Notes under the pieces: model-generated
Told to the model about the DNA's origin: nothing
The model's input: only the letters and a program-made list of their open reading frames with translations
Database searches by the model: none
From: a virus
Taxonomy: Duplodnaviria > Heunggongvirae > Uroviricota > Caudoviricetes
Strand: one strand, 5' to 3'
DNA length: 10,087 nucleotides
Virus record (IMG/VR): IMGVR_UViG_2734482790_000005
Location: 1-10,087 of that record
Shown: one piece after another, positions 1 through 10,087 of the stretch
Position numbering within the stretch: the stretch's first letter is position 1
How the letters are laid out: every line of letters begins with the position of its first letter
Translations under genes and position numbers: made by a program

Positions 1-1653
1 GGGTTAGCCGGTGCTGCCGGCTACGGACTGAAACAGGTCGCTTATGGATTTCGGGAGGCATCCCGTCAGGCCTATAATCTTGATGTCTCGGCAAAAAATG
101 CGGGAATGCGCGTTGACGATTTTACCCGACTTTCCGGGGCAATGCGTATTCTTGGGGCAGACAGCGAGAGCGCTAATGCATCAATAGAAGGTATTTTCAA
201 AGCATTCAATGAGGCTGCCAGTGGTAAAAACGAGGGGGTTATGGCAGCGATGGCGCAAATTGGTGCTCAAATCCAAAAAAACAGCGATGGTTCAGTAAAT
301 ACCCTTAAAACACTGGAGTCTATCGCAAAAATTTTTCCAACCTTGCGACCTGAACAGCAGAAGTCCGCCGCTGATGCACTTGGGCTGACGCCCGAATTGC
401 TGGCGCTAATGCGTGACGGTGAGCGCATGAAAAAGCTGCTGGCGAAATCGGATGAATTTGGTCTGACTGTGGATCCGGCACTAAATCAGCAATTGAGTGA
501 AGTGAACGGCACTATGAATGAGCTCAGCGCATCCTGGGATGGTCTGTGGCAACGTTCAAAAAACAAGGCACTTAAGACCATTCTTTCGGATGGTTCAGTC
601 AAAGACGGCCTTGAAGGTGTTACCGATCTGTTCACTAATGGTGATTTTACTGGGCTGTCTCATGCTCTCGGTTTTATCAACAGCAATGATGCTGAGAAAC
701 TACGGCGCATTCAGAACGATAAGGAACTTTATAACAGCTTACCCCGCAGTGAACGTGGGCAGGTTGACGCGGGTTTCATGACTGATGCTGTAAGAAAGCG
801 GTACGATGCGAATTACCGCGCGACCGATTCTGCGATTCAATTGCAGAATGACTTATCCGCTATCAGCCAGCCACAATCCAACGTTGCACGCGGCAATGTT
901 CCTTACGGGGAAACAAGGAATAACGCAATTGGCTTCAGAAATAATAATCCCGGTAATTTGAGAGTTGCAGCAAACGCAACGGGTAAAAATGGCGGATTTT
1001 CTACCTTTGCGAATGATGCCGACGGAAGAACTGCAATGGCGAGACAGCTGATGTTGTATGGTGACAGGGGGAATAATACTCTGGATGGGATTATTCATAC
1101 CTATGCTCCGCAATCAGAGAATAATACTCGTGCATATATTGACTCCGTCTCAAAAGCCACTGGATATGGAGCCAAAGAGCAAGTAAATCTGCACGATCCG
1201 GAAACATTAAAAACGATAATGGCAGCCATGATTAAACATGAGAATGGCGCACAACCTTATACTGAGGAACAACTGCTAAACGCCATCCAGACCGCCATTA
1301 CTGATGATCGGTGGTCAGGGAAGAGAAATCCGGATGTGCTGGCCCAGCAGCGGTATGACATTATCTCAGGTTCGCAAACTGGAAATCGTGACTCCAGCAC
1401 TCTTAGTAACCCGAGTGATGAAACTGATATTCTCTCAGGCTCGCAGAACAGAAATCGGGAATCCATCATTCTGAGTGATACGGGTAAGAAAAGTGATGAA
1501 AGTGTACTCGGCGACAATCTGGCTAAGTCTCTTAAAGAGGCAATGTCAGAACAACCACTTAAGCTCGAAATCACAATGGTTAATGATAAGGGTGAGCGAA
1601 AAACCTATAATGCGGAAAATAATGGCAGAATAACAACGGCCATGAATTACTGA
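1..1653 (+). CDS. Probable tail tape-measure protein, 3' part (5' end lies outside the window)
   Basis: Frame 1 is open from base 1 with no stop (codons ggg tta gcc ... read through to the ATG at 106), so the gene starts upstream; stop TGA at 1651-1653. Position immediately upstream of the DNA-circulation/baseplate block matches Mu-type gene order. Low-complexity helical-looking N-proximal part, then a distinct C-terminal region. Not confirmed by search. Confidence 0.6.
   Translation, partial: GLAGAAGYGLKQVAYGFREASRQAYNLDVSAKNAGMRVDDFTRLSGAMRILGADSESANASIEGIFKAFNEAASGKNEGVMAAMAQIGAQIQKNSDGSVNTLKTLESIAKIFPTLRPEQQKSAADALGLTPELLALMRDGERMKKLLAKSDEFGLTVDPALNQQLSEVNGTMNELSASWDGLWQRSKNKALKTILSDGSVKDGLEGVTDLFTNGDFTGLSHALGFINSNDAEKLRRIQNDKELYNSLPRSERGQVDAGFMTDAVRKRYDANYRATDSAIQLQNDLSAISQPQSNVARGNVPYGETRNNAIGFRNNNPGNLRVAANATGKNGGFSTFANDADGRTAMARQLMLYGDRGNNTLDGIIHTYAPQSENNTRAYIDSVSKATGYGAKEQVNLHDPETLKTIMAAMIKHENGAQPYTEEQLLNAIQTAITDDRWSGKRNPDVLAQQRYDIISGSQTGNRDSSTLSNPSDETDILSGSQNRNRESIILSDTGKKSDESVLGDNLAKSLKEAMSEQPLKLEITMVNDKGERKTYNAENNGRITTAMNY
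1357..1494 (+). repeat. Two tandem imperfect 69-bp (23-codon) repeats inside the tape-measure CDS
   Basis: Unit 1 (1357-1425) encodes DIISGSQTGNRDSSTLSNPSDET; unit 2 (1426-1494) encodes DILSGSQNRNRESIILSDTGKKS. Shared DI(I/L)SGSQ..NR(D/E)S..LS pattern, in frame with the CDS. Confidence 0.6.
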
Positions 1654-1684
1654 TCACTGTCGTCATTTCGTTAAGGAAGAAGTT

Positions 1685-1933
1685 ATGAATGAAAAAGTTT
1701 TTGGAGCAAAAGCCATTTAGACTCCAAAGGTTTTTGCGCTTGTTTACCTGGTAATTGGCATTTTCCTCGTTTTTTCTGTTGTCTCAATGAATTTCACGGC
1801 GATTACGATATCGGTGGTAAGTGCATTGCTTTTACGTGTGCTTTATGAGTTCCTAATGAACTCATTCAAGGCGACTGAGCATCTTTACAGGATCGCCGAA
1901 TCTCTTGACCGTAATGGATCCAGCGATAAATAG
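1685..1933 (+). other. Candidate small ORF in an AT-rich insert: strong SD + ATG, in-frame TAG after 11 codons, then a ~70-codon hydrophobic open frame ending at a second TAG
   Basis: AGGAAG at 1674-1679, 5 nt before ATG 1685; reads MNEKVFGAKAI then TAG at 1718-1720; same frame continues TPKVFALVYLVIGIFLVFSVVSMNFTAITISVVSALLLRVLYEFLMNSFKATEHLYRIAESLDRNGSSDK to TAG 1931-1933. The internal ATG at 1787 has no recognisable SD. Hydrophobicity may partly reflect T-richness. Confidence 0.3.
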
Positions 1934-1956
1934 ATAAGTCATTTCAGTGCATATGT

Positions 1957-1983
1957 AAACCGCCGACATGGCGGTTTTTTTAT
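1957..1983 (+). terminator. Rho-independent terminator (+ strand)
   Basis: Stem AAACCGCC (1957-1964), loop GACAT (1965-1969), stem GGCGGTTT (1970-1977), running into a T-tract TTTTTTTTATTT from 1975. On the opposite strand the hairpin is preceded by A-run, so it is unidirectional. Confidence 0.75.
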
Positions 1984-1996
1984 TTCCGGAGGCGTG

Positions 1997-3400
1997 ATGC
2001 CGTCAATTATCCAGGACGCAATAACTTCTCTTTTGGGGGGAGATACCAGCGATGACTGGCAGGGGCAGTTACGGCCCAGCTCATTCAGAGGTGTGCCATT
2101 TGCAATTGTTGCTGAGGAAGGGAGCCACGGCCGACGCCAGGCGGTACATGAATATCCCTACCGTGATACAGCCTGGATAGAGGATATCGGGCGGGCAACA
2201 CGGCGATTTGTTATTCGCGGTTTCTTGATCCAGAACAGCCAGGTTTACGGCGGCGGCGATGCTATCACGCAGCGCCAGTCACTGATTGAAGCCTGTGAAC
2301 AAAAAGGTAGCGGTACGCTTGTCCATCCGACACTGGGCGAATTAACGGTTTCCATCCCTGAGAATGGTTTGCGTATTTCCGGTTCGATGGAGAACGGGCG
2401 AGTATTTGAATTTACCCTGATGGCAATTGAATCAGGGCTTAAAGTGTTTGCTGTCACGGGCAGTACCGTTGCAGGCGCCACGGTGAAAACCAACTATCTG
2501 AAACTGGTCAGCACTGCTGTGCTGAGCACGATTGCCAGAGTTAAGAGTGAAATCCGCGGTGTCACACAGGCTATAAACACCATCAGAGGCACGGTCACGT
2601 TCTGGACTAACATGGTTGACAGCACCATCAGTCAGGTCACGAATCTCAGCAATGTCCTGAACTCCACGTTCGGGAATACCCGGTACGGACGTTACAGTAA
2701 AGGCTCTGTGGGCGGTAGTTCCTCTGCTGTTGCTGGCAAATCGTCAGTTGCTGATGTGGATGATGAGAGAGCACTGGCTGACAAGGTAACAGCCCAGTCG
2801 GTAATGGACCGGAAAAATGTTACCGACAGGTCGAGCCAGCTTAGCAGCTCCAACACACCTGATGAGTTTGTCCAGGGCGTCGCCGACGTGGTAAACGCAA
2901 TTCTTAACAGCGCCGGCAGCGTTAATGACCGAATCACAGCGCTGGAAAAACTGGCTAATTCAATCAGCACGGAGTACCAGCAGTCCGACAGCAGCAAAGC
3001 GATTTCGGCGACCATGAACACGCTGATTGTTGTGCTATGTACTGGTGCCATGACCAGTGCCGCTGCGGACTCCAGACCAGCCAGTACAGACGAGGCAGAA
3101 GAGTTAACTCAACGAGTTTCTGTGCAACTTGATACGGCGCTGGTTCTGGCTGGAGACCGCGCAGACGATGATATGTATAACGCGCTTCTCGCCGTCAGAT
3201 CGGCATTCCTTTCTACGATGAGTGAGCGTGCTTCTGGTCTGAGCGAGCTTCTGCAGGTTACTACCGCTCAGCCGCTTCCGGCGCTGACGCTGGCAAACCG
3301 ATTATACCAGGATGCCACCCGTGCAGATGAACTGGTACAGGAAGCGCGCGTACCGCATCCGGCGTTTATGCCGACAACCATGAAGGTACTGAGGCAATGA
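1997..3400 (+). CDS. DNA circulation protein (Mu gpN / gp43-like)
   Basis: N-terminus carries the SFRGVPF ... HEYPYRD ... EDIGR pattern typical of the Mu N family; size (467 aa from ATG 1997) and position before the baseplate hub fit. GGAGG at 1988-1992 precedes ATG 1997; GTG 1994 is the alternative start given in the ORF track. Confidence 0.8.
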   Translation: MPSIIQDAITSLLGGDTSDDWQGQLRPSSFRGVPFAIVAEEGSHGRRQAVHEYPYRDTAWIEDIGRATRRFVIRGFLIQNSQVYGGGDAITQRQSLIEACEQKGSGTLVHPTLGELTVSIPENGLRISGSMENGRVFEFTLMAIESGLKVFAVTGSTVAGATVKTNYLKLVSTAVLSTIARVKSEIRGVTQAINTIRGTVTFWTNMVDSTISQVTNLSNVLNSTFGNTRYGRYSKGSVGGSSSAVAGKSSVADVDDERALADKVTAQSVMDRKNVTDRSSQLSSSNTPDEFVQGVADVVNAILNSAGSVNDRITALEKLANSISTEYQQSDSSKAISATMNTLIVVLCTGAMTSAAADSRPASTDEAEELTQRVSVQLDTALVLAGDRADDDMYNALLAVRSAFLSTMSERASGLSELLQVTTAQPLPALTLANRLYQDATRADELVQEARVPHPAFMPTTMKVLRQ

Positions 3401-4482
3401 ATGCAGACAGCGATCTGGATGTTGTTTCTTTGACGGTCGACGGCAAAATCATCGAGGGGTGGGATTCTGTCCGGGTAACGCGGGGTATTGAGCGTTTTCC
3501 CTCTGATTTCGATCTTGGGCTAATGGATTACTTCCCTGGCAACGAAGATCGTCAACTCGTTGAAGAGGGAATGTCTTGTGAAGTTCGTATCGGAGATGAT
3601 CTGACACTGACGGGATATGTTGATGACTGGGAACCCGCACTATCGCGCTCCCGCCATGAGGTCCGCGCCACGGGCAGGAGCAAATGTCAGGACCTGGTGG
3701 ATTGCTCAGCCGAGTGGCCTAACAACGTCATCAATGCCAGTAATGCGCTTGAAATTGCTTCTCGCCTGGCATCCTACTACGGCATCACCGTAACCACGGA
3801 TGTTGATGAACTTGTGAAGGTACCCCAGTTCACTCTGAACTGGGGTGAGTCTCCGCAAGAAGTCATCGATCGGGTGGCCAGATGGTCTGCTCTGCTTTAC
3901 TACGATCAGCCCGATGGAAACCTGTTACTGACCCGGGTGGGAACACGTCGTGCGGCAAGTGGGATAGCCGAAGGGGTAAATGTCGAGCAGGCATACTACC
4001 GCAAATCGATGGCTGACAGGTTTTCAGATTATGTCGGTGTATCAATGAGCGTTTCTCCAATTGCAGGGTATTCGCCTGATACGGCCTATGACGCTGTGAC
4101 TCTGGCAACGGCGAGAGATCCGGAGGCCGCCCGCATGCGGTACCGAAAACATATATCGATTGTGGAAAGTACCCTGATGGCTACTCAACAGGCACAAAGT
4201 GCGATCGACTGGGAAATGAACCGGCGGTACGGACGTTCAAAACAGCTCTCGGTAACCATCGATTCCTGGCGGGATAAAGACGGGAAACTGTGGGAACCAA
4301 ACACATTGATCCCCGTTGATCTTCCCACCTTACGGTTGCCGAAGACTGAATTGCTACTGGCAGAAGTCACCTATATGCGCGATGACTACGGCACCCATGC
4401 ACGCATGACGCTGATGCCGCCTGAAGCATTCTCCGTTCAGCCATATGCCTTCTACCAGAACCTGGCGGGATTCAATACATGA
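3397..4482 (+). CDS. Baseplate hub protein (Mu gp44 / P2 gpD-like)
   Basis: 361 aa, start overlaps the upstream stop in an ATGA motif (3397-3400); position in the conserved Mu-type order N-hub-spike-wedge-J-gpI. Confidence 0.75.
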   Translation: MNADSDLDVVSLTVDGKIIEGWDSVRVTRGIERFPSDFDLGLMDYFPGNEDRQLVEEGMSCEVRIGDDLTLTGYVDDWEPALSRSRHEVRATGRSKCQDLVDCSAEWPNNVINASNALEIASRLASYYGITVTTDVDELVKVPQFTLNWGESPQEVIDRVARWSALLYYDQPDGNLLLTRVGTRRAASGIAEGVNVEQAYYRKSMADRFSDYVGVSMSVSPIAGYSPDTAYDAVTLATARDPEAARMRYRKHISIVESTLMATQQAQSAIDWEMNRRYGRSKQLSVTIDSWRDKDGKLWEPNTLIPVDLPTLRLPKTELLLAEVTYMRDDYGTHARMTLMPPEAFSVQPYAFYQNLAGFNT

Positions 4483-5063
4483 AGCAACTATTTAAACATG
4501 CAGCGACCAGGATCGCCGGCATGCTGGGGATTGGCCGGATCACGGCTATGAAAGATGGTGGGGTGGTGCAGTCTATCCAGTACCAGACTCCGCTGGAGGT
4601 GGCCAGCGCTCCGCGGATGGCAGAATTTGGCTTTTCATCCGGCCTGCCGTCAGGGACTGACGTGGTTCTGGCTTTTATTGGCGGTGATCGTTCCAGCGCG
4701 GTGGTAATTGCGTCCAACCATCAGGGGTTCCGTCATACAGGCCTGAAAGCGGGCGAAACGGTCATGTATAACCAGTGGGGCCTTAATATTCTCCTGACGG
4801 AGAAGGGGATCTTCCTGGATGCAAAGGGCCAGAATGTTGAGGTCAATAACGCCACTAACGTGACCATCAATGCCAGCCAGGGGATCCTTGCAAATACCCC
4901 GATCCTGAGGTGCACGGGTGACATTGTTGATAACTGTGAAACCAATACCCGAACACTGAAAGAGCTGCGGGATGCACATAATGACCATGATCATGTGGTT
5001 AAAAATGCCCAGAGTGGCAATGACAATATCCGCAGCCAAAAAACAGAGGATCAGGTGACATGA
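4479..5063 (+). CDS. Baseplate spike / assembly protein V (Mu gp45 / P2 gpV-like)
   Basis: 194 aa; ATGA overlap with upstream stop (4479-4482); C-terminal His/Asp cluster AHNDHDH (codons 4974-4994) of the kind that forms the metal-binding apex in gpV-type spikes. Confidence 0.75.
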   Translation: MKQLFKHAATRIAGMLGIGRITAMKDGGVVQSIQYQTPLEVASAPRMAEFGFSSGLPSGTDVVLAFIGGDRSSAVVIASNHQGFRHTGLKAGETVMYNQWGLNILLTEKGIFLDAKGQNVEVNNATNVTINASQGILANTPILRCTGDIVDNCETNTRTLKELRDAHNDHDHVVKNAQSGNDNIRSQKTEDQVT

Positions 5064-5497
5064 GTGACATCGCTTCATTCTGGAATGTGGATGAGATGTT
5101 TGCTGACTGGCAGAAAGGGCTGGGTGAACTCACCACGGGGAACGATTTACAGACTGCAATACTGGACAGCCTGTTTACCGACAGGCTGGCGCGCGCTGAC
5201 GATGATTATGAGGATAGCGATCGCCGCGGCTGGTGGGGGGATTCCGGGGAGGAATCCCAACTGGGATCCCGGCTGTGGCTGCTACGGCGGAAAAAACTGA
5301 CCCCGGATGTAGCAAAAAAAGCGGAGGAATACTCGAGTGAAGCGCTCAACTGGTTAAAGGTTGATGGCGTTGTCAGCGAGGTTATTCCTGTTGCAAGGAT
5401 CGTCCTGCCTGACCGGCTCAATCTCATTATCCGCTATCAGGCACCGGGGAAGGACTGGCAGGAATTCAGGTTTTACTGGATATGGGAGCAACGTTAA
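5060..5497 (+). CDS. Baseplate wedge protein (Mu gp46-like, GPW/gp25 functional equivalent)
   Basis: 145 aa; ATGA overlap at 5060-5063; size and position fit the Mu gp46 slot. Confidence 0.7.
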   Translation: MSDIASFWNVDEMFADWQKGLGELTTGNDLQTAILDSLFTDRLARADDDYEDSDRRGWWGDSGEESQLGSRLWLLRRKKLTPDVAKKAEEYSSEALNWLKVDGVVSEVIPVARIVLPDRLNLIIRYQAPGKDWQEFRFYWIWEQR

Positions 5498-5498
5498 T

Positions 5499-6641
5499 AT
5501 GCCGTTTAAACGACCGACGCTGAGCGAACTCCGCGACGGAAACCGGAAATTTATGCAGGCGGAGCTTGAGGATGTTGGTGCGCTCCTGCGCTTCGCGAAC
5601 CTGAAGGTACTGGCTGACATGGATGCGGGGATGGGGCATCTGCATTACGCCTACCTTGACTATATTGCCCTGCAGACAAACCCGTTTACCTCTACCGATG
5701 AGTATCTCGCCGGGTGGATGGCCCTTAAGCAGGTATTCAGAAAACCAGCTGCAGCGGCGAAGTCGCCTGCGGTACAGGCTAGTGGCAGTGTTGACTGTAT
5801 TATCCCTGTTGGCTCGATCATTAACCGCGGGGACGGATACCAGTACCGGACGGATGCAGATCTTAAAATTCAGGCAGATGGATTTGGTATCGTCGCGGTG
5901 ACGGCCATACTGCCGGATATTACCAGTGATGTAACGGGTGGAGGCGCGCGCGGTAACGCTGATGCCGGGACCATAATGACCCTGGACGCGAATATTGCTG
6001 GCGTGGATCCACAGGTAACGTTACTGTCCGCTGCGACCGGCGGAGCCGATATTGAAACGGAAGAGGATTTTCGCAGTCGTGGCTTGCTGGCATGGCAGAA
6101 TCCGCCTCAGGGTGGAAGCGACGCCGATTATAAAAAATGGGCGCTTGAGGTTTCGGGCGTCACCCGCGCGTGGGTAAAGCGGCGTCTGAACGGGGCCGGG
6201 ACCGTTGGCGTGTATATCATGTGTGATCGGAATGACAATGGTGGGTTTCCGGTCGGTACCGACGGAATATCCCAACTTGAGGACTGGGGGGCTGTTAAAG
6301 CCACCGGAGACCAGCTCGCTGTCGCCGACCACATCTATCCGCAGCAGACAGACACTGCCATTGTTTTCGTATGTTCCCCGATCAAGAAAGTCATCAATAT
6401 TGAAATCTCTGGGATCAAAAATGCCGACAGCACCACAGTTCAGGGGATAAAAGACGCGCTGACGGCGCTGTTTTTTGATGAAGCTAACCCTGATGGTTCC
6501 GGGAAAGTTTACCTCTCTGATATTAACGGGAGTATCGGCGGTGTTAGCGGCACGACGGGCTATATTCTTAACTCTCCGACGGCCAATATCACCTTTGCTG
6601 TTGGCGAAATTCCGGTGCTTGGCGGGGTGAATTTTGTATGA
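5499..6641 (+). CDS. Baseplate J-like protein (Mu gp47 / P2 gpJ-like)
   Basis: ATG 5499 lies 1 nt after the upstream stop (TAA 5495-5497) and is in frame with the 5361 ORF in the track; the 5361 start would overlap the upstream gene by 137 bp so 5499 is preferred. 380 aa. Confidence 0.8.
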   Translation: MPFKRPTLSELRDGNRKFMQAELEDVGALLRFANLKVLADMDAGMGHLHYAYLDYIALQTNPFTSTDEYLAGWMALKQVFRKPAAAAKSPAVQASGSVDCIIPVGSIINRGDGYQYRTDADLKIQADGFGIVAVTAILPDITSDVTGGGARGNADAGTIMTLDANIAGVDPQVTLLSAATGGADIETEEDFRSRGLLAWQNPPQGGSDADYKKWALEVSGVTRAWVKRRLNGAGTVGVYIMCDRNDNGGFPVGTDGISQLEDWGAVKATGDQLAVADHIYPQQTDTAIVFVCSPIKKVINIEISGIKNADSTTVQGIKDALTALFFDEANPDGSGKVYLSDINGSIGGVSGTTGYILNSPTANITFAVGEIPVLGGVNFV

Positions 6642-7231
6642 GCCTCTTTTCAAAAAATGATTATGCCGATGCGCTTGGTGCGCTGCTACCGACGGGCAGG
6701 GCGTGGCCCCGGTCGCAAAGAACGGTACAGGCTGCGGTATTACGGGCACTGGGCAGCGCGTTTCAGCGTTCTGACAACGATGCGCAAAGCCTGATTACTG
6801 GTGCTTTTCCCCCTACAGCGACGGTAATGTTGTCAGAATGGGAAAGCTCTCTGGGGTTACCAGATGATTGTGCGATTGGTGAATCCGGTGGCGTCAGCGA
6901 TCGCCAGCGCGCCGTGGTGGCAAAGTTAATCAGCACCGGCGGCCTGAACCGCGATTATTACATCCGGGTGGCTGCAGCTCTTGGTTATACCATCACTATC
7001 ACACAGTTCCGGCCCGCTATGAGTGGCATGTCAGTATGCGGTGATGCGCTTAACGGTGACGAGTGGCCATTTACCTGGCGGATAAATGCGCCACAAACAA
7101 CGATCAAGTATTCGCTTGCTGGCGCGTCCTACTGCGGAGATCCGCTCGCATCGTGGGGCAATAAACAACTGGAGTGTTCAATCAACAAAATTGCCCCATC
7201 CCATCTGAACATCATTTTCAATTATTCATAA
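6638..7231 (+). CDS. Tail protein, P2 gpI / Mu gp48-like (YmfQ-type)
   Basis: 197 aa; ATGA overlap at 6638-6641; sits between baseplate J and the tail fibre as in Mu, P2 and e14. Confidence 0.7.
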   Translation: MSLFSKNDYADALGALLPTGRAWPRSQRTVQAAVLRALGSAFQRSDNDAQSLITGAFPPTATVMLSEWESSLGLPDDCAIGESGGVSDRQRAVVAKLISTGGLNRDYYIRVAAALGYTITITQFRPAMSGMSVCGDALNGDEWPFTWRINAPQTTIKYSLAGASYCGDPLASWGNKQLECSINKIAPSHLNIIFNYS

Positions 7232-7282
7232 CTGATATTTCCCCCTCTGATTTTATCGCTTAACACTAAGTGAGGATTAACT

Positions 7283-7918
7283 ATGCTCCGAATCGGGCAA
7301 GTCGAAGCCACTGCAACGCAGGATGGCAAATATACTGATGGAAGTGTTGCTGGTGGTATTGCCGCAACGAGGCTGCGGGCAGCAGCGTTTAATGCCATGC
7401 AGGAAGAGTTAGCGCATATCGTAGAGTCAGCAGGATTGGCGCTCGACATTAACGATATGACTCAGGTTTTAAAAGCCATTCAAAAACTCACACTGAGCCG
7501 TGCAAACCCATTTGCCGATATCAAATCAGATGGTGCAGCGGCGATTTCTACGGCTCTCACAAACCTTGGTTTGGGAGAAGCGGCTAAAAGAAATGTAGGG
7601 ACAGGGGCGAATCAGATACCTGATATGGGTAGTTTTATGCTTTCTGCTTCAGTTCCTGGATATCAAAAATTGCCATCCGGTTTAATTATTCAATGGGGGC
7701 CAATTGATGTTCCGCTGACGCCTCAGGACACAGTAACCTATTTTCCGATTGCATTTCCGAATAGATGTCTGCGGGTATTTGCGACTCAGGATTACACTCC
7801 CGGCAGTGCAAATGTTGGCTATATAGCTTGTGCCGGTTATAACCAGGACCCGGTGAAATTTATTTCCAGAGCAGGCGTACCCGGTATCGGTGCTTCATTT
7901 TTCGCATTAGGGTGTTAA
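7283..7918 (+). CDS. Tail fibre protein, currently expressed form (constant N-part 7283-7567 fused to variable C-part 7568-7918)
   Basis: GAGGA at 7270-7274, 8 nt before ATG 7283. The 26-bp invertase crossover site lies inside the gene at 7554-7579, so the first ~95 codons are constant and the rest is inside the invertible segment. Followed by a tail-fibre assembly gene. Confidence 0.8.
7554..7579 (+). other. Left crossover site for the serine invertase (gix/hix/pix-like)
   Basis: CTCTCACAAACC TT GGTTTGGGAGAA: two 12-bp half-sites around a 2-bp core (7566-7567). Half-sites resemble the Hin/Gin half-site consensus TTATCAAAAACC (9/12 each, from my recollection of that consensus). Its inner half is the exact reverse complement of the inner half of the right site. 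Confidence 0.8.
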
Positions 7919-7944
7919 TTTCTTTTAACTTTATGGAGTGAAAA

Positions 7945-8385
7945 ATGAATTACATATATTCCGCGACTACAAACTCTTTCTATCCCTTGGAGATGAAAGA
8001 GGATTACACGCAAGCTGACTCATGGCCAGATGATGCTGTTGAAGTTGATGAGCAAGTGTATATTGAGTTTTCCGGATTACCGCCGAAAGGAAAAATCCGT
8101 ATCGCTGGAGAAAATGGTTTTCCTGCATGGTCTGAAATTCCACCACCAACACATGAGGAACAGATTGCTGCAGCCGAACTGAAAAAGCAGCAATTGATTA
8201 ATCAGGCCAACGATTATATGAACAGTAAACAATGGGCTGGTAAAGCGGCTATTGGTCGTCTGAAAGGTGAGGAACTGGCGCAATATAATTTGTGGCTGGA
8301 TTATCTGGACGCACTGGAGCTGGTCGATACTTCCAGTGCGCCAGATATTGAATGGCCTACTCCTCCGGCAGTTCAGGCCAGATGA
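7945..8385 (+). CDS. Tail fibre assembly protein (Mu U / Tfa-like), partner of the currently expressed fibre
   Basis: 146 aa; N-terminus MNYIYSATTNSFYPLE and C-terminal LDYLDALELVDTSSAPDIEWP motif are typical of Tfa chaperones; GGAG at 7935-7938 precedes ATG 7945. Confidence 0.85.
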   Translation: MNYIYSATTNSFYPLEMKEDYTQADSWPDDAVEVDEQVYIEFSGLPPKGKIRIAGENGFPAWSEIPPPTHEEQIAAAELKKQQLINQANDYMNSKQWAGKAAIGRLKGEELAQYNLWLDYLDALELVDTSSAPDIEWPTPPAVQAR

Positions 8386-8959
8386 CATCCGGCGCGGTGC
8401 TGGTATCTGTTGCCGTCACCGCGTCAATGTAATCCAGCACAGTGTTAAGTCGGGAGGTCTCTGCCTGCATCAGCTCCCGCCCAGCCCGTAATTTCAGTTG
8501 AATCAGACTAATGGAAGCCATTGCAGTATCAATCAGTGACTGACGCTGTGCTTCTGCCGCGTCTACTGCGGCGTGATGCTGTGCCTCAGTATCGGTCACC
8601 CATTTCTCACCATCCCATTTATCGTATGGCGTTAATGGGGCGATAGTGGTTGTATTTTCGGGGTAATCACCCGGAGTTGTGATTTCTTTGGCGTCTCCCG
8701 TTTCGGTGTTATAGACGATTTCTCCGCGATGGTCTGGCACATATTCCCATGAGTTTAAATCCGCAGAGCGGCAGATGGCATAACCAGCTTTATATGTTCC
8801 TGGTGCATCTAAACAGGAACATGCCGGAATACCGACACCAACAGCAAGATATTCAGTTGATGTGGAAATATATTCTCGTGTTTCACCATTATAATTATAG
8901 ACAGTAATATCCCCCGCCTTCGTGGCAATAAACTCGCTATTTAATACGGCATTATCCAT
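8357..8959 (-). CDS. Tail fibre assembly protein, alternative (Mu U' / TfaE-like)
   Basis: 200 aa; N-terminus MDNAVLNSEFIATKAGDITVYNYNGETREYISTSTEYLAVGVGIPACSCLDAPG and C-terminal LDYIDAVTATDTSTAPDVIWPELPEE are typical of Tfa proteins; start overlaps the upstream stop in TAATG. Confidence 0.85.
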   Translation of the reverse strand: MDNAVLNSEFIATKAGDITVYNYNGETREYISTSTEYLAVGVGIPACSCLDAPGTYKAGYAICRSADLNSWEYVPDHRGEIVYNTETGDAKEITTPGDYPENTTTIAPLTPYDKWDGEKWVTDTEAQHHAAVDAAEAQRQSLIDTAMASISLIQLKLRAGRELMQAETSRLNTVLDYIDAVTATDTSTAPDVIWPELPEE

Positions 8960-9486
8960 TATGCAGCCCTCACGATGTAATTAAATGAAAGGTTACGAGG
9001 GCGCATTGATATCCATGCCCCGGTAAAATTATCCTCCGCTGTCCTTTGAGTACCCGTTATGGAGTTATCTGCTGATGCAGGAACATAATCGCTATTATTT
9101 CCTGCTTTAGGATTAGCTGGGTTTCCAACAGTTATAACAGAATCAGCAGTAGCAAAAGCGATACCTACTTTGACATTAGTATTCAGATCGTAACCGTAAT
9201 AATCCTGCAAAGCTGTACGAATAAATGTTGCAGCCTGACCACTTAGCAATGAACGCCCCGTATCAATCCCTCTAGAATCATCCCAGCCACGAATAAACTC
9301 ACCACGTAAATCAGGCAATTTATTTGTCGGGTAAGCCTTTGCCAGTACCGGGTATTCTTCAGCAGAAAAAGCTGCTCCGTTGCATTTCAGCCAGCCTGTT
9401 GGCGGAGTGGCGGAAGGCCACGGAACAGGCACACCAACGGGTAATGCCGAACCTTCTCCCAAACCAACCTTTTTTATAACCATCAA
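8959..9486 (-). CDS. Alternative tail-fibre C-terminal segment (S'v-like), silent in this orientation
   Basis: Contains tail-collar-like motif PVGVPVPWPSATPPTGWLKCNGAAFSAEEYPVLAKAYP. Its first codons (9468-9486) lie in fixed DNA outside the segment and have no SD, so it is not an independent gene; after inversion codons from 9465 downward would fuse in frame to the constant part 7283-7567. Confidence 0.75.
   Translation of the reverse strand: MMVIKKVGLGEGSALPVGVPVPWPSATPPTGWLKCNGAAFSAEEYPVLAKAYPTNKLPDLRGEFIRGWDDSRGIDTGRSLLSGQAATFIRTALQDYYGYDLNTNVKVGIAFATADSVITVGNPANPKAGNNSDYVPASADNSITGTQRTAEDNFTGAWISMRPRNLSFNYIVRAA
9454..9479 (+). other. Right crossover site for the serine invertase
   Basis: TTCTCCCAAACC AA CCTTTTTTATAA; core AA at 9466-9467 equals the left core TT when inverted; reverse complement TTATAAAAAAGG TT GGTTTGGGAGAA shares one identical half-site with the left site, the same arrangement as hixL/hixR. 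Confidence 0.8.
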
Positions 9487-9507
9487 AAATCTGGTGATGC
9501 TTCGCCG

Positions 9508-9534
9508 TTTCTCCTGTTTTCATAACAGGAGAAA
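9508..9534 (+). promoter_or_regulatory. Perfect 11-bp-arm palindrome covering the invertase ribosome-binding site
   Basis: TTTCTCCTGTT (9508-9518), spacer TTCAT, AACAGGAGAAA (9524-9534). The right arm contains AGGAG (9527-9531), 7 nt before the invertase ATG at 9539. No T-tract on either side, so not a terminator. Confidence 0.6.
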
Positions 9535-9538
9535 TCCC

Positions 9539-10087
9539 ATGATTTACGGTTATGCCCGAGTATCAACAAACCACCAGGACACTGAATTGCAACTAACGGC
9601 GCTCAAGTCAGCGGGTTGTGAGAAAATTTTTGAAGAGCATGCCAGCGGGAGGAAATCGAATCGGCCGGTTCTAAAACGGCTCATCGCCACTATGCAGCCG
9701 GGGGATGAACTGGTGGTCTGGAAGCTGGACAGGATAGGCCGCAACGTTCTGCATGCGCTGTTGATGTTCCAGCAGTTACAGGAAAAGGGTATCAACTTCC
9801 GCAGTATTACCGATGGCGTGGATCTCAAAACAGCCAGCGGCCGCTATAACTTTCGTAACATCCTTTCCGCAGCACAATATGAATCTGATCTTAATAGCGA
9901 ACGTACCTTAGCAGGGCTGGCCGTAGCCAGGGCAAAAGGGCGAGTTGGTGGTCGCAGGCCTAAGTTCACGGATGAGCAATGGCGGGAAATGGGGGAGCGG
10001 ATGGCAACCGGTGAATCACGACAAAGCGTATCAAAAACGTATGGAGTAGGGCTCTCAACTCTGTATAAAAAGTTTCCAGCTAGCTGA
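9539..10087 (+). CDS. Serine DNA invertase (Gin/Hin/Cin/Pin family)
   Basis: 182 aa; N-terminal GYARVST with the catalytic serine at residue 10, VVWKLDRIGR resolvase-family motif, GRVGGRRPK hinge and C-terminal helix-turn-helix (SVSKTYGVGLSTLYKK). Start 9539 preferred over 9380 in the track because of the SD and family length. Stop TGA at 10085-10087. Confidence 0.9.
   Translation: MIYGYARVSTNHQDTELQLTALKSAGCEKIFEEHASGRKSNRPVLKRLIATMQPGDELVVWKLDRIGRNVLHALLMFQQLQEKGINFRSITDGVDLKTASGRYNFRNILSAAQYESDLNSERTLAGLAVARAKGRVGGRRPKFTDEQWREMGERMATGESRQSVSKTYGVGLSTLYKKFPAS

Follow-up and report, generated by a model that had tools for sequence, protein, structure and literature searches.

An Enc34-type peptidoglycan hydrolase domain, probably a virion-associated lysin, in the tape-measure protein of an Escherichia coli prophage with a Mu-like contractile tail

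What is the compact region that lies towards the end of a prophage tape-measure protein (TMP) in the DNA analysed here, and what would it do in the virion? The DNA, hereafter the window, is the whole stretch of 10,087 nt given by positions 1 to 10,087 of IMG/VR record IMGVR_UViG_2734482790_000005 (Caudoviricetes), and it begins inside the TMP gene. A preliminary description of the letters had proposed that the C-terminal ~150 residues of the protein form an appended globular domain with an FRNNNPGNLR motif, had assigned it to no family, and had mentioned cell-wall-acting and channel-forming domains as precedents. Judged by its sequence, the domain is clearly a member of the peptidoglycan hydrolase family of the Enc34 endolysin (PHA02564). 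We think it probable that it serves as a virion-associated lysin, a cassette in the TMP of a Mu-like contractile tail that digests murein locally during DNA injection. Because everything that follows depends on where this cassette begins and ends, the parts of the gene are given first; the open reading frame (ORF) is open at the 5' end of the window, and a full-length TMP residue number is the window residue number plus 92.

1 to 1653, plus strand: 3' part of the TMP gene, its last 551 codons; the full protein has 642 amino acids and the stop codon is at 1651-1653
1 to 873, plus strand: TMP body, full-length residues 93-383, matched by phrog_9858, phrog_12506 and phrog_8125 only
874 to 918, plus strand: linker between body and enzyme domain (QSNVARGNVPYGETR) and 5' junction of the exchangeable cassette; predicted local distance difference test score (pLDDT) below 50 at model residues 1-11; the alignment with the TMP of Citrobacter phage phiNP breaks here
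919 to 1308, plus strand: predicted Enc34-type (PHA02564) peptidoglycan hydrolase domain, full-length residues 399-528
931 to 963, plus strand: GFRNNNPGNLR signature motif; family consensus G-[IL]-R-N-N-N-P-G-N-[IL]-R
964 to 1335, plus strand: mosaic tract relative to the allele of E. coli ECONIH4 (L008), holding all 69 nucleotide differences
1102 to 1104, plus strand: Tyr460, equivalent of Enc34 Trp79 (column HTYAP versus ERWAP in alignment A2); Tyr or Trp in all members
1105 to 1137, plus strand: A-P-x-x-E-N-N-T-x-x-Y motif, with Glu465 at 1117-1119 and Tyr471, equivalent of Enc34 Tyr95 (A2), at 1135-1137
1240 to 1242, plus strand: Glu506 in K-H-E-N-G, equivalent of Enc34 Glu131 and proposed to be catalytic (phmmer match to HENG of 7q47, and MAFFT)
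1309 to 1518, plus strand: post-domain stretch, a conserved RWSGKRNPDVLAQQR followed by a Ser/Asn/Asp-rich low-complexity linker with an imperfect duplication
1519 to 1650, plus strand: conserved TMP C-terminal module (..LKLEITMVNDKGERKTYNAENNGRITTAMNY), helix and beta-hairpin, 35% identical to the phiNP C-terminus

Two sets of PHROG profiles divide the protein, with phrog_9858, phrog_12506 and phrog_8125 on window residues ~19-276 and phrog_873, phrog_7694 and phrog_7182 on ~300-450. Because body and domain are matched by different profiles, a true domain boundary lies near nt 874-918; similarity to the phiNP TMP ends at nt ~873 (full-length residue 381; phiNP residue 383). An AlphaFold2 model of the translation of nt 880-1320, built with a 20-sequence alignment, has a mean pLDDT of 84.1 and a predicted TM-score (pTM) of 0.79, and consists of five helices and a small hairpin. 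Its residues 1-11 score below 50 (nt 880-912, disordered), its first helix starts at residue 17, and the ordered part is placed at model residues ~14-143, so that nt ~919-1308 are predicted to form a compact, independently folding domain. This model replaced a poor single-sequence prediction of nt 850-1653 (pLDDT 48.5, linker below 50), which was used only as a hint of a C-terminal helix and two strands forming a hairpin.

The proposal of a separate globular domain is therefore borne out by its own profiles, a confident model and the break in the phiNP alignment; the region does not lie within the ordinary tape-measure core, and frame 1 encodes the NNAIGFRNNNPGNLR motif at exactly nt 919-963. 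The description of it as the C-terminal ~150 residues needs amending: the compact domain is real, but it is internal rather than C-terminal, because ~115 residues follow before the stop codon at 1651-1653. Directly after the domain comes an RWSGKRN..QQR stretch, of which RWSG..QR is kept in the TMP relatives P0034-P0041; these relatives also keep the C-terminal module, as do P0044 and P0055 more loosely. Among TMP relatives the post-domain linker differs in both length and sequence, and in the window it contains an imperfect duplication of ~22 residues (nt 1363-1428 and 1432-1497; ISGSQTGNRDSSTLSNPSDETD and LSGSQNRNRESIILSDTGKKSD) that is visible at the protein level only, Tandem Repeats Finder having reported no nucleotide tandem repeats in the C-terminal linker.

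Family identity was established against solved structures and phage profiles. A phmmer search of PDB sequences gave two specific matches, 9vvp_L (E = 1e-19), the core protein Gp29 of podovirus phage E1004, and 7q47_A (E = 1.3e-8), the endolysin catalytic domain of Hafnia phage Enc34. The N-terminal ~116 residues of E1004 Gp29 share 98-99% identity with gp16-type proteins of Kayfunavirus phages; we found no paper in the literature accompanying 9vvp. The 'endolysin' profile phrog_873 matches the domain at 3e-41, and phrog_7182, a 'tail injection transglycosylase', matches it as well. Scans of Pfam and NCBIfam with the domain and with the whole TMP yielded no model for the domain, and no Pfam entry, PF01464 (SLT/GH23) included, matched it at E <= 1. 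The modelled TMP domain shares the all-helical fold of the Enc34 catalytic domain. In experiments, Enc34 ORF39 from which the C-terminal transmembrane domain had been removed lysed cells of E. coli, P. aeruginosa and H. alvei whose outer membrane was permeabilised (PMC8943055), and the cell-wall-acting role suggested in the preliminary description thus gains support from the placement of the domain, by homology, in an experimentally muralytic family. The alternative of a channel-forming or membrane-inserting region was rejected for the lack of a hydrophobic segment together with the soluble-enzyme fold; the highest 19-residue Kyte-Doolittle mean in the E. coli TMP is 0.85, and the protein has no signal or transmembrane segment.

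The residues expected of an active enzyme are conserved far beyond this prophage. For Enc34, Glu131 has been proposed as the catalytic residue with Tyr95 and Trp79 positioning the substrate (PMC8943055), and the E. coli TMP has Glu506, Tyr471 and Tyr460 at the equivalent positions. The G, R, N, N, P, G and N of the signature motif do not vary between TMP, gp16, endolysin and stand-alone members (alignment A2). Eight residues are the same in all of 74 full-length representatives taken from the 148 nearest clusters (no more than 50% identity), namely N408, P409, G434, A461, P462, N466, Y471 and E506. At the level of sequence, invariance of these eight residues is the signature of a conserved active site.

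The carrier, too, could be identified with confidence. Nucleotides 1-1653 are 100% identical to the coding sequence of WP_001548479.1 in E. coli NZ_AP021894, and nt 1-1700 are 100% identical to chromosomal prophages of several E. coli genomes, with matches in 32 of 5,426 complete genomes; a megablast search of nt 1-1700 against the phage collection matched no sequenced phage at the nucleotide level. The element is known as a prophage only. In NZ_AP021894 its early and lysis genes are lambdoid (Q antiterminator, two holins, GH19 endolysin), its head module is lambda-like and its contractile tail module is Mu-like. The tail genes (locus L001) run in the order sheath, tube, tail assembly protein (chaperone), TMP gene, Mu gp43-like DNA-circularization gene and baseplate genes, an order shared with phages BZS1 and phiNP, in which the orthologue is annotated as TMP. 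The profile phrog_2276 ('tail length tape measure protein') matches the window part at E = 4.6e-121 and the full-length protein, over residues 1-564, at 1.3e-155, and phrog_8125 and phrog_12506 cover the TMP body only, which makes the TMP match independent of the enzyme domain. PF10145 (PhageMin_Tail) reached 13.1 bits with the window fragment against a gathering cut-off of 33.2, and is a precomputed match in some close homologues. From gene neighbourhood and profiles we accept the assignment as a tail tape-measure protein, in agreement with the preliminary description. Matches to PrpD and WXG100 in the Pfam and NCBIfam scans of the TMP were set aside as spurious (E > 0.005), and Mu gp42, tried as a relative, shows no similarity and has no Enc34-type domain; 'Mu-like' consequently applies to the tail module and not to the TMP.

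In every listed E. coli genome the RefSeq/PGAP label of the 642-residue TMP is 'hypothetical protein' (including L001 19725-21653 and L008 125-2053), because the Enc34-type domain has no Pfam or NCBIfam model; SLT-carrying orthologues of the same TMP are labelled 'lytic transglycosylase domain-containing protein'.

Such orthologues supply the strongest comparative evidence for what the slot is for. Over residues 1-383 the phiNP TMP shares 68% identity with the E. coli TMP, over the last ~80 residues it shares 35%, and between these regions the equivalent slot holds an SLT lytic transglycosylase (PF01464, 2.6e-26) with intact E-S and GLMQ motifs; several further close TMP-body homologues (65-80% identity) also carry SLT. 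A parallel exchange is found in podoviruses, where the gp16 proteins of Kayfunavirus and T7 share 52% identity between residue 132/159 and the end while the N-terminal domain is Enc34-type in Kayfunavirus and SLT in T7. The T7 genome needs the SLT domain of gp16 in order to enter through murein that is highly cross-linked (PMC8954989). Because two sequence-unrelated murein-cleaving modules fill one slot in each of two injection proteins, the slot appears to call for a murein-cleaving enzyme. A distant, circularly permuted structural kinship between Enc34-type and SLT domains has been proposed (PMC8943055).

The same exchange bears on whether the domain might serve tail assembly instead of infection, as a lumen plug or spacer or as a docking element at the hub, kept for its size and shape. 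Such a role would suit its place beside the conserved C-terminal module, which in contractile tails would be expected to contact the hub, and TMP length does contribute to tail length. We nevertheless regard this explanation as very unlikely: the two unrelated sequences that fill the slot have the same biochemical target, the same domain works elsewhere as a free endolysin, and a purely steric function would not keep active-site residues invariant.

Within E. coli, the cassette also varies independently of its surroundings. The ECONIH4 allele is 100% identical to the window over nt 1-873, nt 1513-1650 and the intergenic nt 1654-1993, and in this one allele pair nt 964-1335 are a recombination tract with sharp edges that stays within the enzyme cassette, which fits the modular nature of the cassette. 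The differences affect 49 codons, 25 synonymously and 24 non-synonymously, with amino acid changes from window residue 322 to 445; 38 of these codons are in the domain (18 synonymous, 20 non-synonymous) and 11 lie just after it (7 synonymous, 4 non-synonymous). One change turns HENG into HESG, adjacent to the proposed catalytic Glu.

That substitution, the tyrosine in place of Trp79, and the derivation of the TMP domain's activity from homology would all be compatible with a catalytically silent derivative that binds peptidoglycan only and anchors or orients the ejected TMP in the periplasm without cutting the wall. We judge this improbable, however. The proposed catalytic Glu and Tyr and the whole NNNPGN / AP..EN.T..Y signature are invariant in the 74 diverged representatives, and the phiNP slot is filled by a bona fide SLT with intact E-S and GLMQ motifs, which argues that an enzyme is wanted there.

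A bolder thought is that the slot on the C-terminal side of the TMP is an exchangeable 'enzyme cartridge' under diversifying selection. It arises because the ECONIH4 differences cluster in and just after the domain and because orthologous TMPs carry either Enc34-type or SLT enzymes; we consider it unlikely. If it were true, the diversity could come from an arms race in which hosts modify their murein or deploy periplasmic lysozyme inhibitors, and the TMP lysin would be a host-range determinant and not a mere helper.

Returning to the reading as a virion-associated lysin, the arrangement in this prophage is the one that characterises that class: a predicted murein-hydrolase domain embedded in a TMP, and in the same prophage a separate GH19 endolysin with holins. 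Because the prophage has this cassette of its own, with two holins and the GH19 endolysin, the TMP domain should not be needed for lysis. This matters for the proposal that the domain acts as a second endolysin at the end of the cycle, released from unassembled TMP. True endolysins do occur among family members (Enc34, chi-like phages, Casadabanvirus), but the lysis cassette of the prophage is canonical, the domain sits inside a 642-residue structural protein with neither signal nor transmembrane segment, and the parallel with the gp16 ejection protein points to entry; we assign this proposal hardly any probability. Taken together, the invariant active-site residues, the SLT substitution and the separate lysis cassette leave the silent derivative, the assembly role and the second endolysin disfavoured.

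In contractile tails the TMP C-terminus is at the hub and exits first. For the E. coli TMP we propose the following scheme, in which the enzymatic activity of the domain, its topology in the tail, the timing of its action and the bond that it cleaves are all inferred. The TMP would lie in the lumen of the tail tube with its C-terminal end at the baseplate hub. Sheath contraction would push the spike through the outer membrane, after which the TMP would be expelled C-terminus first, and the enzyme domain, near that end, would cut glycan strands locally. In catalysis, Glu506 would act as general acid while Tyr471 and Tyr460 position the substrate. The tube and TMP would then reach the inner membrane, and the DNA would pass. 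Lysin mutants of T7 gp16 and of the TM4 TMP are impaired on stationary-phase or cold-grown cells. TMPs are established carriers of virion-associated lysins, as in T5 Pb2, TM4 and phiIPLA35 (reviewed in PMC6116005).

Several points weigh against the entry lysin. The aromatic residue equivalent to Trp79 is a tyrosine in the E. coli TMP domain, and the catalytic role of Glu131 in Enc34 itself comes from structural superposition and not from mutagenesis (PMC8943055); the N-acetylglucosaminidase specificity was likewise argued by the Enc34 authors from GH73 analogy only (PMC8943055). In the literature we found no experiment on this protein or on any TMP-borne family member. A globule of ~130 residues, present in several copies, is hard to fit inside the lumen of a tail tube, and the folded 130-residue enzyme must either cross that lumen or be stored there unfolded. 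Finally, the TMP of phage Mu is unrelated and has no Enc34-type domain, so that Mu-like tails do not in general require a murein-cutting activity.

How exceptional, then, is a TMP-borne Enc34-type domain? At the level of 50%-identity clusters, 8,554 representatives match the domain at E <= 1e-3 and 2,415 at E <= 1e-10, a very large family and many more matches than chance would give. Architectures were counted from this exhaustive representative search, since most proteins given by the homologue search were short or partial. Of the 148 nearest representatives, 110 have lengths of 441-700 residues with the domain about two-thirds along, and 43 of the 74 scanned representatives also match TMP-body profiles that exclude the domain. 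These counts make the TMP-embedded form a major habitat of the domain rather than an oddity. The family extends well beyond TMPs: 790 records of sequenced phages contain a domain match, and the domain is the endolysin of chi-like phages and Seuratvirus, a stand-alone protein of 138 residues in Casadabanvirus and Salmonella, and the N-terminus of the Kayfunavirus gp16 'internal virion protein with endolysin domain'. The structural protein P5 of phage PM2 matches the family (tblastn 2e-11) and has been predicted to have an Enc34-like fold with a W/Y/E triad (bioRxiv 10.1101/2022.07.18.500477), and an Enc34-type module occurs within an effector of a type VI secretion system (PMC13340143). Structure matches in BFVD carry the names 'virion protein', 'internal virion protein D' and 'tail-fiber/lysozyme'. 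The domain is thus found both on its own and fused to virion proteins, the two arrangements for which the preliminary description had advised a check.

Two distant TMPs with an Enc34-type domain, P0044 and P0055, have a long hydrophobic Gly/Ala-rich stretch upstream of it and a much shorter tail after it; the E. coli TMP has no comparable hydrophobic segment. Because these stretches are absent from the E. coli TMP, the way in which the TMP engages the inner membrane may differ across the family.

Two further parts of the window deserve mention. The TMP stop codon and the DNA-circulation gene are separated by a 340-nt AT-rich gap at 1654-1993 (GC 0.37-0.43 versus ~0.5-0.55 in the flanks); the same gap is only ~35 nt in phages BZS1 and phiNP. 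Within the gap lies an unannotated ORF of 48 codons (1787-1933, plus strand; MNFTAITISVVSALLLRVLYEFLMNSFKATEHLYRIAESLDRNGSSDK) whose N-terminal helix is hydrophobic; after it comes a hairpin that, with its T-run, resembles a terminator (1957-1977 plus tail). In Pfam this ORF region drew only a sub-threshold match to DUF4282 (22.6 bits against a cut-off of 27). The gap looks like a moron insertion, and a small membrane protein beside the TMP gene recalls the superinfection-exclusion moron gp15 of HK97. At the other end, 7283-10087 resembles a Mu G / P1 C-type invertible host-range segment, with the following parts.

7283 to 7918, plus strand: tail-fibre gene
7945 to 8385, plus strand: tail-fibre assembly gene
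8357 to 8959, minus strand: inverted assembly gene
8959 to 9486, minus strand: alternative fibre C-terminus
7545 to 7580 and 9453 to 9488: 36-nt inverted repeats bounding the segment, core AAACCTTGGTTTGGGAGAAG
9539 (probable start ATG) to beyond the window end: Gin/Hin-type serine invertase

Strain 2018-10-1CC, identical over nt 1-1700, has a fibre gene, an assembly gene and an acyltransferase in place of the 7283-10087 arrangement.

It should be stressed that TMP-borne lysins, the Enc34-type fold and its use on ejected virion proteins are already known, and our finding overturns nothing in current understanding. The Enc34-type domain inside a TMP is so far unrecognised by Pfam, NCBIfam and RefSeq; our literature search found no description of it in tape-measure proteins, nor a link between this family and TMP or ejection proteins, and the paper on the nearest phage TMP (BZS1) does not mention it. 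Thousands of phage and prophage annotations would be put right if the domain were named. The exchange of Enc34-type and SLT modules in a myovirus TMP and in podovirus gp16 is good comparative evidence of functional interchangeability for entry and offers a natural swap system for testing what virion lysins contribute. Small, soluble, Gram-negative-active domains of this type are also candidate enzybiotics.

Among the named systems close to ours is the Enc34 ORF39 endolysin (PDB 7q47; PHA02564; also M4Lys of Salmonella phage BSPM4). There the domain stands at the N-terminus with a two-helix transmembrane domain after it, belongs to a lysis-cassette gene and acts from within at lysis, whereas in the E. 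coli TMP it is internal to a virion protein, has no membrane segment and does without the two insertions of Enc34. By sequence, the closest solved relative is the gp16-type internal virion protein D of Kayfunavirus, a DNA-ejectosome component (9vvp chain L), whose homologue in phage EcpYZU01 is 41% identical to the TMP domain (alignment A2). Both place the same predicted catalytic module on a protein ejected into the envelope ahead of the DNA, but the gp16 carrier is a podovirus core protein of ~1,300-1,500 residues with the domain at its extreme N-terminus, and in E. coli the domain sits about 80% along a carrier that is a myovirus TMP. T5 Pb2, the TMP of mycobacteriophage TM4 and that of S. 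aureus phage phiIPLA35 likewise embed a muralytic module that aids entry (PMC6116005), although with other catalytic families and in siphovirus tails, none having been reported as Enc34-type. P5 of Pseudoalteromonas phage PM2 (Vinavirales) is, like our domain, a family member in a virion component; PM2 is a tailless, membrane-containing virus, and P5 is not fused to a tail protein. The phiNP TMP matches the E. coli protein in context, with an orthologous carrier, a conserved C-terminal module, the same gene order and a murein-cleaving cassette in the same slot, and differs in that its cassette is an SLT (GH23) enzyme for which no sequence alignment with the Enc34-type domain is possible.

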